Shown piece after piece: positions 14,424-19,092 of a stretch of DNA of 64,000 bases (position 1 is the first letter of the stretch; each line of letters opens with the position of its first letter). The translations under genes and the position numbers were made by a program. The notes below the pieces were generated by a model. The model searched no databases. It was not told where the DNA came from and worked only from the letters and a program-made list of their open reading frames with translations. Where the stretch lies: positions 6,908 through 70,907 of the forward strand of contig DASPFV010000219.1 in NCBI GenBank assembly GCA_035620975.1, read 5' to 3'. Source of the stretch: Vicinamibacterales bacterium (GTDB lineage: Bacteria > Acidobacteriota > Vicinamibacteria > Vicinamibacterales > 2-12-FULL-66-21).

Positions 14424-15815
14424 TCACGCGGGCAGGAACGTGAAACAGAGCACCCCCAGCGCGAACCAGAGCGCGGCGTACACCACGTTGTAGCCGATGA
14501 ACTGGCGGAAGTCGATCCGGGCGATCCCGGCCGCGATGACGACCCAGAACGGCGAGAGCAGGTTGCCCATGTGGTCGCCGATACTCAGCGCGAGGAGGCC
14601 GCGCTGGGCGGTGACCCCGACGGCGGCGGCCGTGGTCGCCGTGATGAACCCCTGAATGACCCACTGCCCGCCGCTCGACGGGACGAAGATGGACACGAGC
14701 GACGCCGACGCGGCGGTCAGCAGCGGAAAGGTGAACTGGTTCGAGATCGAGGCAAAGAACTCGCCGAGCGTGCTGCCCACGGTCGTGAACTGAATCACGC
14801 CGGCCACACCGGCGTACAGATGGTAGAGCACGACGACCGGCCACGCCGAGACGGCCGCGAAGGGAAGTGTCCGGGAGAAGTTGCGGACGCTCCGGTGGCA
14901 CAACAGGCAGAGCAGGAGCAGCGCCGTGTTCAGCGAGTTGAGCTCGAGACCGCCATTCGCGACGGCGAAATGGTACACGAGCCAGCCGGCGAGCACCGCG
15001 CTCAGCAGGGCGGTGGGCAGGGGATGGCTCTCGAGCCGCTCGGAGAACGTCGCCGGAACCGTGAGCGCTGCGGCGTCCGCACCGCCAGCCGGTGCGGCAC
15101 GTTCGCCCAGTTTCCACGCCTCGGGGAAGTGGGAGAGCGGTCGAGCATGCCGCGGGAGGAGCAGGCGGGCCGTCACGACGAGCGTGACGAGAAACGCCGC
15201 CACGAACAGCAGCGCTGCCGGCGCGAAGATCGTCGTGCGGAGCGGCATCAGCCCGGTGGTCTTCTCCAGGAAGTGTCCCGGCGTGTTCATGAGCAGCGGC
15301 GCGCTCGCAGAGAGCCCGAACTGCCACACCGACATCGCGGCGCCGGTCGTCGCCAGCAGGAACGGAAAGTCGACCGCCAGGCCCTTCTTCTCGGCCTCGC
15401 GGGCGAAGTGGACGGCGATCAGCGGACCGAGCGTGATCCCCAGGCCCCAGTAGACGTAGGAGAGCGCCGCCGTCAGCAGAATCGCGGCCCCCAGCACACC
15501 CGACACGCTGCCGGGACGCTCCGACAGGGCGCAGATGACCCGTTTGAAGATCGGCGAGGCACCCAGGCTCGAGCTGAGGACCAGGATCAATGTCATCTGC
15601 ATCGTGAAGGGCAGCAGCATCCAGAGGCCGCGGTGATAGGCGCTCATGGTGTCGCCGACCGTCGTGCCCATCGCCAGGGCCGCGACGGCCACGATCGCGA
15701 GCAGCCCGATGGACGTCGTCATCGCGTCCGGGATCAGCCGGCCGATCAGGTCGGCAAATCGCGTGAGGCGATCGACGGGCGGCGGCGCGGCCGGCTGGAG
15801 CATCTGAGTGGTCAT
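14424..15815 (-). CDS. atoE: Short-chain fatty acid transporter (AtoE family)
   Basis: 463-aa polytopic membrane protein whose N-terminus (RFADLIGRLIPDAMT) and overall pattern are typical of the AtoE/TIGR00366 family. Confidence 0.75.
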   Translation of the reverse strand: MTTQMLQPAAPPPVDRLTRFADLIGRLIPDAMTTSIGLLAIVAVAALAMGTTVGDTMSAYHRGLWMLLPFTMQMTLILVLSSSLGASPIFKRVICALSERPGSVSGVLGAAILLTAALSYVYWGLGITLGPLIAVHFAREAEKKGLAVDFPFLLATTGAAMSVWQFGLSASAPLLMNTPGHFLEKTTGLMPLRTTIFAPAALLFVAAFLVTLVVTARLLLPRHARPLSHFPEAWKLGERAAPAGGADAAALTVPATFSERLESHPLPTALLSAVLAGWLVYHFAVANGGLELNSLNTALLLLCLLCHRSVRNFSRTLPFAAVSAWPVVVLYHLYAGVAGVIQFTTVGSTLGEFFASISNQFTFPLLTAASASLVSIFVPSSGGQWVIQGFITATTAAAVGVTAQRGLLALSIGDHMGNLLSPFWVVIAAGIARIDFRQFIGYNVVYAALWFALGVLCFTFLPA

Positions 15816-15869
15816 GGCAGGTGGCCTGGGCAGGTGCGGGGGAGCATACGGGAATGCCGGGTCCCGGGT

Positions 15870-16952
15870 CTACAGCCGGGACGCCGCCCGTCGCGCCAGA
15901 TACGCCACGCGATCCCCGAGGTTCGCGAAGCGCGGGTCATCGGTTTGATGCTTCACGAAGCGGAAGTAGATTTGCTGGACGACCACCGCAATCTTGAAGA
16001 GCGCGAACACCTCGAAGAACGTCAACGTCGTCAGGTCGCGGCCGGTGAGCGCGGCATAGCGGTCGACCAGCGCCGCCGGCGTCAGCCACCCCGGCCGCGT
16101 CGTTACCGTCGTGAGCGCGTCGCGCTGCTCGGGCGGCGCGCTCGGGACCCAGTACGCCAGCAGGATGCCGAGATCCACCAGCGGATCGCCGAGCGCCGCC
16201 ATTTCCCAATCGAGCACCGACGCGACGCGGGATGGGTTGGCGGCGTCGAGCATCAGGTTGTCCAGCTTGAAATCACCGTGGACGACGGTCGGCCGTGCAG
16301 GATCTGGCGGCAGCGACTCCGTCAGCCAGCGGGCCAGCGCTTCCATTTCGGGCACCTCGGCCGTCTTCGAGCGGTGCCATCGGTCGGTCCATCCGCGGAC
16401 CTGCCGTTCGACGAAGCCGTGGGGCTTCCCGAGGTGAGTCAGGCCGGCTCGCAGGTCGACGGTGTGCAGCTCGGCCAGCGCGTCGATGACCGCGAGGCTG
16501 ACCCCGCGCCTGACGCCCGGTTGATCGCGGATCGACGGCGGCTCCTCTTGGCGGACGACGATCCCGTGTCGTCGTTCCATTACGTAGAACACGGCGCCGG
16601 CGATGGCGGGGTCCTCGCACAGGGCGTACACGCGGGGTGCCAGCGGAAAGACGGGATGAATCGCCGAGAGATAGCGGTACTCGCGAGCCATGTCGTGGGC
16701 GGTCGGGGCAACCGGGCCGAGCGGCGGCCGCCGCACGACGATCTCGGTCGTCCCGAAGCGCACGAGATACGTCAGGTTCGAGTATCCGCCGGGGAACTGC
16801 GCCACCTGCATGCGCTCGCGCAGATCGAGGCCGGCGATGCCGGACGCGGGTAGCTCCGCGCGCAGCCACGCCTCCAGTCGCGGCCAGTCGAGCTCTTCAC
16901 CCGATCGAACAGGCGCGGTGTCGGCACCAGGAGCGTCGGCTCTCTCGCGCAT
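15870..16952 (-). CDS. Phosphotransferase (APH/ChoK-like kinase), ACAD10/11 N-terminal-domain type
   Basis: The kinase catalytic loop VVHGDFKLDNLM and DWEMAALGDPLVDL are APH-fold motifs. Length and context (next to an ACAD) match the kinase half of ACAD10/11-type systems. Confidence 0.85.
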   Translation of the reverse strand: MRERADAPGADTAPVRSGEELDWPRLEAWLRAELPASGIAGLDLRERMQVAQFPGGYSNLTYLVRFGTTEIVVRRPPLGPVAPTAHDMAREYRYLSAIHPVFPLAPRVYALCEDPAIAGAVFYVMERRHGIVVRQEEPPSIRDQPGVRRGVSLAVIDALAELHTVDLRAGLTHLGKPHGFVERQVRGWTDRWHRSKTAEVPEMEALARWLTESLPPDPARPTVVHGDFKLDNLMLDAANPSRVASVLDWEMAALGDPLVDLGILLAYWVPSAPPEQRDALTTVTTRPGWLTPAALVDRYAALTGRDLTTLTFFEVFALFKIAVVVQQIYFRFVKHQTDDPRFANLGDRVAYLARRAASRL

Positions 16953-17017
16953 GAAGGTTCATTCCGCCGCCGCCTCGCCGGGTTGGGCCCGAGACAGAAA
17001 TCGTTGCGCGCGGCGCA

Positions 17018-17488
17018 TCAACGGACCACCGGTGACCGGGCATAGTAGCGGACGATCCATTCCGCCACTGCACAGGGCCTGTCGCCGCTGTCGCGCTCGA
17101 TAGTGACGTTCCAGGTCGCCTGCGTGCAGTCCTTCAGGTCGTCAACCCTGCCGAGGGCGAATCGGCCGCGTATGCGGGAACCGGCCGGCACCGGTGACAC
17201 GAAGCGCACGCGGTTGAGCCCGTAATTGATCGTCATCCGCGGATCGACGATGGTCATGGCGTCGCGCATGAGCGCGCTGACCAGCGACAGCGTCAGGAAT
17301 CCGTGCGCGATGGTCGTGCCGAAGGGCGCCTCGGCCCCCGCCCGCGCGGCGTCGACATGGATCCACTGGTGGTCGGCGGTTGCGTCCGCGAATGCGTCGA
17401 TGCGTGGCTGATCGATCACCATCCAGTCGCTGACGGCGACCTCGCGCCCGACCAGCGCCCGCAGCGTCGCCAACTCTACGACGGCCAC
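17018..17488 (-). CDS. MaoC-like (R-specific) enoyl-CoA hydratase/dehydratase
   Basis: Hot-dog fold signature [30 protein letters not shown]. Confidence 0.85.
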
Positions 17489-17832
17489 GCGGCATCATCC
17501 TCGCTGGCCGTCGGGCGGACGCACAAGCCTGCCATCCATGCTCCCCCGCGCGCTCGGCGGCCCCGGGCGCGCCCTCTCGGAAGATCGAGGCGCCGCTGCC
17601 GGCGGATCGGCCGGGAGGGCCACCCTGCTGGCTCGGACCGGGCGGCGCAGCGGACGTGACATGCGTCGCTACGGTATCATGCCGCTCGCCCGGTGCAGCT
17701 GCCCTGGTCGCGGAAACCGCAGGGGCCTGCGGCCGGTCAGCACTCGTTCGCGGCGCCCAGGTGGCCGCGACGGTTCTGGCGGCGCGCAGGGGCCGCGCAC
17801 GCGCACACAGTCGCCGCCATCTGAGGATCGCC

Positions 17833-19092
17833 GTGGAGTTCGAGCATTCCGCGAAGGTGAAGGATCTGCAGGCGCGGCTCACCGCCTTCATGACCGCCCA
17901 CGTCTACCCCAACGAGGAGCGGTTCCGGGACGAGATCGAGACGGGCGATCGCTGGCAGCCGACGAGCATCGTCGAGGATCTGAAGGTGAGGGCCCGCGCC
18001 GAGGGGTTGTGGAATCTGTTCCTGCCCGGGCGCGAATACGGCGCAGGGCTCACGAACACCGAGTACGCGCCGCTGTGCGAGATCATGGGGCGGTCGACAT
18101 GGTTCGCGCCCGAGATCTTCAACTGTTCGGCGCCCGACACGGGGAACATGGAGATCCTGGCGCGCTACGGGACGGCGGAGCAGAAGCGGAACTGGCTGGA
18201 GCCGCTCCTCGCCGGCGCAATCCGATCCTGTTTCGCCATGACCGAGCCCGACGTGGCCTCGTCCGACGCGACCAACATCGAGTCAACCATCGCGCGCGAG
18301 GGCGACGAGTACGTCATCCACGGCCGCAAGTGGTGGATCTCCGGAGCCGGAGACCCTCGCTGCCGGCTCGCTCTCGTCATGGGCCGCAGCAACCCCGACG
18401 CATCGAGGCACCAGCAGCAGTCGATGATCCTGGTGCCGATGGACACGCCCGGCGTCCGGATCCGGCGGCTGCTGCCGGTCTTCGGGTTCGACGATGCGCC
18501 GCACGGTCACGCGGAGATCGTGTTCGACAAGGTGAGGGTTCCCTCCTCGAACATGCTGCTCGGCGAAGGTCGTGGCTTCGAAATTGCGCAGGGCCGCCTC
18601 GGACCCGGACGCATCCACCACTGCATGCGTCTCATCGGGTTGGCCGAGCGCGCCCTGGAGCTGATGTGCGCGCGCGTCAGGAGCCGTGTGGCCTTCGGCA
18701 GGGCGCTCTCGGAGCAGGGCACGATCCGGGCCGGTATCGCGGAATCCCGTGTGGAGATCGACCAGGTGCGGCTGCTCACGTTGCGCGCGGCCTGCATGAT
18801 GGACACGGTCGGCAACCGGGCCGCGCGATCGGAAATCGCGCAGGTCAAGGTTGCCGCGCCGCGCATGGCGCTGCGGGTGCTCGATCGCGCCATCCAGGCG
18901 CACGGCGGCGCGGGCGTGTGCGAGGACTTTCCCCTCGCCCGGGCCTGGGCGCACGCGCGCACGCTCAGGCTGGCCGACGGACCCGATGAGGTGCACCTGG
19001 AAGCCATCGCGAAACTGGAACTCGCCCGCGGACAGGCGTCCCGCGGAGAGACGGCTCCGCCATCGAGCGCGATGGCCCGCGAGGTGACGTGA
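17833..19092 (+). CDS. Acyl-CoA dehydrogenase, FadE2/ACAD10-11 C-terminal-domain type
   Basis: [19 protein letters not shown]-terminus, [29 protein letters not shown], and C-terminal [10 protein letters not shown]. The start is placed at in-frame GTG 17833 because the upstream 59 codons look non-coding (Arg/Ala-rich). Confidence 0.85.

Follow-up and report, generated by a model that had tools for sequence, protein, structure and literature searches.

In mammals, 4-hydroxy fatty acids are fed into fat burning by ACAD10 and ACAD11, two proteins in which a kinase and an acyl-CoA dehydrogenase (ACAD) are fused into a single polypeptide chain. In mouse ACAD11 the usual catalytic Glu is replaced by an Asp (D753), and three residues of a single helix, R626, H634 and R637, hold the 4-phosphate; mutagenesis showed that R626, H634, R637 and D753 are all needed for the turnover of 4-phosphoacyl-CoA (Rashan et al., PMC12440821). 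A split form of the system is already known from bacteria. According to the accounts given in PMC12440821 and PMC11342911, LvaA and LvaC from Pseudomonas putida KT2440 (Rand et al. 2017) are a separate kinase and a separate ACAD-like eliminase operating via a 4-phosphoacyl-CoA, and LvaC has the Asp and the HCMR signature in common with ACAD10/11 (PMC12440821). Similarly, the split kinase (Q63VL0) and ACAD of Burkholderia pseudomallei replaced the kinase and ACAD domains of ACAD10 in vitro on 4-OH-C6-CoA (PMC11342911). The present work deals with a cluster of four genes located in the window, i.e., the whole stretch of 64,000 nucleotides analysed here, from contig C219 (DASPFV010000219.1) of a Vicinamibacterales bacterium. 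The cluster encodes an APH-fold kinase, an ACAD, a MaoC hydratase and an AtoE-family permease. With a probability of roughly 0.7, the kinase and the ACAD would constitute a split bacterial counterpart of ACAD10/ACAD11, forming an LvaA/LvaC-like two-step shunt.

The ACAD of the window exhibits the three-domain fold of the family (PF02771, PF02770 and PF00441 all match) and aligns over its full length with human ACAD11 (PDB code 2wbi, E 1.4e-145), mouse ACAD11 (cryo-EM structures 8v3u, E 1.7e-145, and 8v3v) and the Mycobacterium abscessus protein 4hr3 (E 3e-143), the ordinary ACAD structures being matched at E 1e-39 or weaker. The equivalent of the catalytic D753 occurs in a stretch, LADGPDEVH, which aligns with the same LADGPDEVH in ACAD11, and the equivalents of R626, H634 and R637, located in the HCMR region, are identical to those of ACAD11. 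In these comparisons the PDB chain numbers differ by one from those used in PMC12440821, as confirmed by the position of the mutated D220A residue in 8v3u. The genome contains a single copy of this type of ACAD.

The kinase, also encoded by a single-copy gene, matches PF01636 (E 4e-49) and contains the motif VVHGDFKLDN. Its best structural matches are 9o56 (E 1.3e-97, 330 bits), 3dxp (E 1e-49) and the kinase domain of mouse ACAD11 (E 1e-46); the aminoglycoside and macrolide kinase models match at E 1e-5 or worse, far under their cutoffs. The HGDFKLDN and LDWE segments align with D220/N225 of ACAD11 and with D214/K216/N219/D234/E236 of 9o56. The Arg which replaces Lys in strand β3 (VVRRPP), the Arg-Glu pair of helix αC (AREY) and the DWE metal motif are all kept, and the Arg of the ERQV segment aligns with R176 of ACAD11, a CoA contact. 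The published label "R86" is at odds with a count of the chain numbers, and the Arg directly preceding the αC Glu was used in its place. As read from these alignments, no catalytic or CoA-contacting residue described for ACAD11 or for the Caldalkalibacillus thermarum homologue is missing from the kinase. LvaA is only 29% identical to the kinase domains of ACAD10/11 and other bacterial kinases reach 51% (PMC11342911); judged by these published identities and by the PDB matches, the window kinase appears nearer to the ACAD10 kinase type than to LvaA. At the level of the sequence, the pair displays every feature by which the ACAD10/11-LvaC family is recognized.

The association of the two proteins extends well beyond the window. 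A scan with the kinase, using one genome per species, yielded at least 591 relatives, among which 80 loci, with flanks of up to 10 kb, were kept; linkage was counted by tblastn with the window proteins in the 51 loci whose flanks measure at least 5 kb on either side. In 39 of these 51 loci, an ACAD (identity 38% or more) is encoded no further than 5 kb from the kinase; a linked MaoC gene accompanies the kinase in 14 and a linked AtoE gene in two. All of the 52 kinase-linked ACADs found in the 80 loci (38-83% identity), from Acidobacteriota, Deinococcus, Chloroflexota, Bacillota, Binatia and others, carry the R...HCMR and Asp signature. The eight ordinary ACADs of the same loci have a Glu of the YEGT type (E-G/E-A-G, with one ACAD lacking it) and none of them has HCMR. 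Among 151 evenly sampled Acidobacteriota genomes, 27 contain the kinase (E <= 1e-40) and 28 this type of ACAD (E <= 1e-60), each of the 27 kinase-positive genomes being ACAD-positive as well; in 21 of 26 sampled Acidobacteriota genomes the two genes are adjacent, no more than about 2 kb apart. This pattern spans 22 genera, the related genomes among them not being independent. The linkage between kinase and ACAD is far beyond chance and, on the evidence of gene order and co-inheritance, both proteins behave as one functional unit. The original prediction, drawn from the DNA letters and their translated open reading frames (ORFs), had taken the pair for a split counterpart of ACAD10/11 and had singled out the phosphate-binding residues of the ACAD as a point to be checked. 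All of these residues are present in the comparison with ACAD11, and the proposal is borne out by the Asp and the Arg/His/Arg pocket, the kinase residues, and the co-occurrence and co-localisation across phyla.

A few additional observations relate to this survey. A second clade of kinase-linked ACADs (L020, L023, L026, L029, L040, L045, L062 and others) shares 38-50% identity with the window ACAD and reads IYDG(P/A)(D/S)EVH; some of its members have Q, T or S at the first His (xHCMR), and R, H, R and Asp are all kept. One genome possesses a signature ACAD of 52% identity (G041:C8:540597-541775) and no kinase at E <= 1e-40; it may harbour a more divergent, LvaA-like kinase or use the ACAD as a stand-alone enzyme. 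Apparent kinase-ACAD and MaoC-kinase fusions (L007:9536-11077, and in genomes G115 and G124) were discarded as start-extension artefacts of GC-rich DNA or as divergent neighbours.

By analogy with the mammalian enzymes, the kinase would catalyse the ATP-dependent phosphorylation of the 4-hydroxyl group of a 4-hydroxyacyl-CoA. The ACAD would hold the resulting 4-phosphate with its Arg/His/Arg helix and, using the catalytic Asp and a redox-active FAD, eliminate phosphate without net oxidation to give a 2-trans-enoyl-CoA. The co-transcribed MaoC would most likely hydrate the enoyl-CoA to a (R)-3-hydroxyacyl-CoA, uptake of the free hydroxy acid may be the task of the AtoE-family permease, and the CoA activation together with the remaining steps of β-oxidation would be provided by genes located elsewhere in the genome. 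In this scheme, all catalytic activities, the length of the substrate chain and the parts played by MaoC and AtoE are predictions drawn from the observed structural matches, residues, co-occurrence and synteny.

The four genes were established by ORF listing and by Pfam/NCBIfam scans, which found all of them intact and in agreement with the coordinates and strands originally predicted (Table 1). The ORF of the ACAD opens at 17656, and its homology to all solved relatives begins only at ORF residues 60-62; since, in addition, a GTG codon at 17833 is preceded by a GAGGA Shine-Dalgarno sequence, the gene is taken to start at this GTG, which fixes the length of the divergent gap at exactly 344 bp. 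On the minus strand, 65 bp separate MaoC from the kinase and 54 bp the kinase from AtoE, and no terminator-like site was found between these genes, consistent with a single MaoC-kinase-AtoE operon. Concerning the proposal that the divergent gap acts as a shared control region, its length stood exactly, but neither a sigma-70-like promoter nor a convincing operator palindrome was found in it, and no Rfam family matches the region at E <= 1 apart from a chance microRNA match inside AtoE; a part in control is suggested only by its position.

Table 1. Coordinates of the cluster genes and of the intervening gene found in relatives
Feature	Position	Strand	Details
AtoE-family (SCFA_trans, PF02667) permease	14424-15815	-	463 residues; last gene of the minus-strand operon
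APH-fold kinase, ACAD10/11 kinase-domain type	15870-16952	-	360 residues; PF01636
MaoC, single hot-dog, Rv0130/HtdZ type	17018-17488	-	156 residues; PF01575; first gene of the minus-strand operon
Divergent intergenic region	17489-17832	.	344 bp; 76% GC
ACAD10/11-LvaC-type flavoenzyme, probable 4-phosphoacyl-CoA phosphate eliminase	17833-19092	+	419 residues; GTG start
FadJ/FadB-like gene in relatives	L007:7336-9561; L009:7366-9510; L011:7412-9538		also in L006 and L008

The two genes which accompany the kinase on the minus strand encode proteins of distinct families. MaoC (PF01575, E 2e-24) matches Rv0130 from Mycobacterium tuberculosis (HtdZ, PDB code 2c2i) over its full length at E 2e-42, with an identical DHQWIHVD active-site motif. 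Rv0130 is a (R)-specific enoyl-CoA hydratase and is not known to be linked to a kinase/ACAD10-type pair. In contrast, the Rv0130-type MaoC is operonic with the kinase in the window, in other Acidobacteriota and in Deinococcus. In relatives such as L007 and L018, MaoC and the kinase overlap by 4 bp according to their tblastn matches, and in L009 also according to the called ORFs, indicating that MaoC is translationally coupled to the kinase in these relatives. This recurrent, coupled (R)-hydratase partner in Acidobacteriota and Deinococcus represents one of the points by which the locus extends the described systems. The permease matches PF02667 (E 1e-66) over profile positions 5-447 of 453 and scores 226 bits against TIGR00366, for which the cutoff is 575.75; according to these scores it belongs to the SCFA_trans family without being an AtoE equivalog. 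AtoE orthologues (56% identity) directly follow the kinase in L007 and L008 only, and this rare link could point to a transporter for free acids.

In the five closest relatives (L006, L007, L008, L009 and L011), whose kinases are 68-76% identical to that of the window, similarity to the window at the DNA level is confined to the cluster genes. All five carry a FadJ/FadB-like gene between ACAD and MaoC, at the place occupied in the window by the 344-bp gap. According to ORF calls its product comprises 616 residues in L006 and 708-741 residues in the other four; the assignment was obtained by Pfam for L007 and L009, and from size and position for the remaining three. No remnant of a FadB-like gene was detected by tblastn in the gap at E <= 10. 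By parsimony, this distribution suggests that the window carries a reduced version of the cluster of its clade, from which the FadB-like gene was lost. In L009 (4344-6053) and L011 (4126-6087), a gene for a FadD-like long-chain ligase, which the window cluster lacks, is convergent with the ACAD. Candidates for displaced orthologues elsewhere in the genome of the window, a FadB-like match of 52% identity and a ligase match of 39% identity (contig C139), were rejected as paralogues. More generally, a Pfam tally of 150 neighbour ORFs comprises 17 SDR proteins, 17 histidine phosphatases, 15 enoyl-CoA hydratases, 9 3HCDH/FadB-like proteins, 5 thiolases, 4 thioesterases of the 4HBT type and only 2 AMP-binding ligases.

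Two further arrangements occur among these neighbourhoods. In L022 (3894-4613), L024 (11044-11760), L025 (11110-11826) and other Bryobacterales loci, a histidine-phosphatase (His_Phos_1) gene, of the kind counted 17 times in the tally, lies directly 3' of the kinase gene; its product could be a counterpart of the HAD phosphatase domain of ACAD10 that has been reported to restrain the kinase. In the Deinococcus loci L063, L070 and L071, the genes for MaoC, ACAD, SDR and kinase are all co-oriented, and the (R)-hydratase and SDR together are reminiscent of peroxisomal MFE-2, whose two activities come into play after ACAD11.

Compared to mammalian ACAD10/ACAD11 (PMC12440821, PMC11342911), both catalytic modules find a match in the window proteins and the key residues are kept, but two divergent genes take the place of a single kinase-ACAD polypeptide, the HAD domain is missing, and a Rv0130-type hydratase and a permease are attached. 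The B. pseudomallei pair, compared by description, is also of the split ACAD10-like type and offers the nearest functional precedent, although it comes from another phylum and another gene neighbourhood. The lva system of P. putida, with LvaA and LvaC similarly compared by description, shares the separate kinase and ACAD-like eliminase but includes neither the MaoC nor the AtoE of the window. Conversely, no SDR, AMP-binding or regulator gene that would correspond to LvaD, LvaE or LvaR occurs in or beside the cluster, and the 54- and 65-bp gaps leave no room for a small ORF such as LvaB, the 344-bp gap not having been screened for short ORFs. As judged from its gene content, the cluster is not an lva operon. 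Among solved structures, the one closest to the window kinase is 9o56, taken to be the C. thermarum homologue, and all of the catalytic residues described for it are conserved; it differs by its HYDYK loop, which reads HGDFK in the window as in ACAD11 and 3dxp, and by its reported activity, the acetyl-CoA-stimulated phosphorylation of 1-O-alkylglycerol. The window adds an example from soil Acidobacteriota to a pathway established in mammals, Pseudomonas and Burkholderia and leaves the known chemistry unchanged; particular to its lineage are the partnership with a hydratase of the Rv0130 type, the uncommon link to AtoE and the presumed loss of a FadB-like gene.

Other explanations can be considered for such a locus. 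The ACAD could be an ordinary dehydrogenase of the FadE2 type whose gene happens to lie close to that of an unrelated APH protein, a phosphotransferase acting on antibiotics or small molecules, as would agree with the generic database names ("aminoglycoside phosphotransferase", "putative acyl-CoA dehydrogenase") and with an older report, as cited in PMC12440821, ascribing long-chain ACAD activity to truncated ACAD11 in lysates. However, purified ACAD10/11 had zero activity on C6-C22 acyl-CoAs (PMC12440821), and the change of the catalytic Glu to Asp, the R/H/R pocket, the poor scores of the antibiotic kinase models and the co-occurrence and adjacency of kinase and ACAD across phyla make this explanation highly improbable. 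More has to be said about the kinase itself, which could mainly be a CoA-thioester-stimulated 1-O-alkylglycerol/monoacylglycerol kinase devoted to the salvage of ether lipids, with the link to the ACAD reflecting a second or different pathway. In a 2026 preprint, 1-O-alkylglycerols are reported to be phosphorylated by ACAD10 kinase domains under stimulation by acetyl-CoA; the C. thermarum homologue, whose structure was solved in the same work, and several further prokaryotic homologues were active in vitro on chimyl alcohol (10.1101/2025.09.10.675409). The best solved match of the window kinase, 9o56, is almost certainly this C. thermarum "ACAD10 kinase", given the exact fit of the residue numbers (R61, E78, D214 in HYDxK, K216, N219, and D234/E236 in DWE). 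The window kinase keeps all of the residues named for the C. thermarum protein, and many Acidobacteriota make ether lipids. Against this, the kinase is co-inherited with a phosphate-pocket ACAD in 27 of 27 genomes and mostly lies adjacent to it, its neighbours are genes of β-oxidation instead of glycerolipid genes, and it is hard to see what a CoA-dependent ACAD that eliminates phosphate would do for an alkylglycerol phosphate. The authors of the preprint call the relation between the two activities unclear and report that CoA is required for activity, in keeping with a CoA-binding substrate site (10.1101/2025.09.10.675409), and Burkholderia kinases of the ACAD10 type phosphorylate 4-OH-C6-CoA (PMC11342911). 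The bacterial genomic evidence, namely the obligate co-inheritance with a CoA-binding phosphate-pocket ACAD and the β-oxidation neighbourhood, thus favours an acyl-CoA role, a second activity of the kinase being possible, and a main function in ether-lipid salvage seems very unlikely. The 27/27 co-inheritance and the β-oxidation context bear on the choice between 4-hydroxyacyl-CoA and ether lipids for the bacterial kinases in general.

It is more conceivable, though still rather doubtful, that the cluster provides a dedicated route for short-chain γ-hydroxy/γ-keto acids (4-hydroxybutyrate, 4-hydroxyvalerate, levulinate) equipped with its own importer. The AtoE/SCFA_trans permease gene is co-oriented with the kinase gene and follows it after 54 bp, an arrangement kept in L007 and L008, and LvaA/LvaC act on C5 substrates. 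Yet AtoE is linked in only 2 of the 51 loci and falls far under the cutoff of the AtoE equivalog, a 4-keto reductase of the LvaD type, a ligase of the LvaE type and LvaB are lacking from the cluster, and the closest relatives possess a FadJ/FadB-like enzyme, two of them together with a FadD-like long-chain ligase. Moreover, ACAD10/11 accept substrates from C5 to C10 and longer, so that the fold does not dictate short chains (PMC11342911, PMC12440821). The self-contained short-chain uptake route of the original prediction, to which the AtoE-family gene pointed, is correspondingly weakened. A bolder version, in which the repackaged pair, the AtoE-family importer and the (R)-hydratase would form an oxygen-tolerant, ATP-driven route from short γ-hydroxy acids (4-hydroxybutyrate, 4-hydroxyvalerate) to (R)-3-hydroxyacyl-CoA, and in which the kinase might double as an alkylglycerol kinase, is quite unlikely. 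If true, it would provide the first transporter assigned to 4-hydroxy acids and an alternative to the radical 4-hydroxybutyryl-CoA dehydratase.

The split ACAD10/ACAD11-type shunt itself has to accommodate, besides the identity of 9o56, several points which weigh against it. No CoA ligase, transferase, 3-hydroxyacyl-CoA dehydrogenase or thiolase gene occurs in the cluster, and the nearest regulator is a LysR gene at about 6 kb; the incompleteness of the pathway within the cluster, with neither CoA ligase nor regulator, had been correctly anticipated. The roles of MaoC and AtoE are less secure, owing to their linkage in only 14 and 2 of the 51 loci, respectively. The chain length hints in two directions, AtoE towards short chains and the FadD-like ligase of the relatives towards long ones, this ligase and the FadJ/B-like enzyme looking like general fatty-acid enzymes. 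In addition, ACAD10-knockout worms and mice displayed no change in 4-hydroxy acids (10.1101/2025.09.10.675409). Finally, the organism is represented by a soil metagenome-assembled genome, for which the activities are read from the sequence alone.

This genome comprises 6.46 Mb in 340 contigs and is 98.5% complete. Its nearest relatives are uncultured soil Acidobacteriota, and the DNA datasets with matches, which were not used as evidence, all consist of soil, rhizosphere or fertilizer metagenomes, no RNA dataset being listed. The window has a GC content of about 69%. The genes flanking the cluster encode a Ser/Thr kinase with TPR repeats, a ThuA-like protein, an AlkB-like 2OG oxygenase, a HAD-HerA fusion and a GFO/IDH oxidoreductase, and are unrelated to acyl-CoA metabolism. 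The 774 bp located 3' of the AtoE gene (13650-14423) contain no Pfam-matching ORF and no Rfam match, and the large ORFs overlapping them look spurious. On the other side, the gene that converges on the 3' end of the ACAD (19140-19730, minus strand) codes for the AlkB-like 2OG-Fe(II) oxygenase (PF13532, E 3e-18); it is not syntenic in the relatives and is probably unrelated to the cluster.

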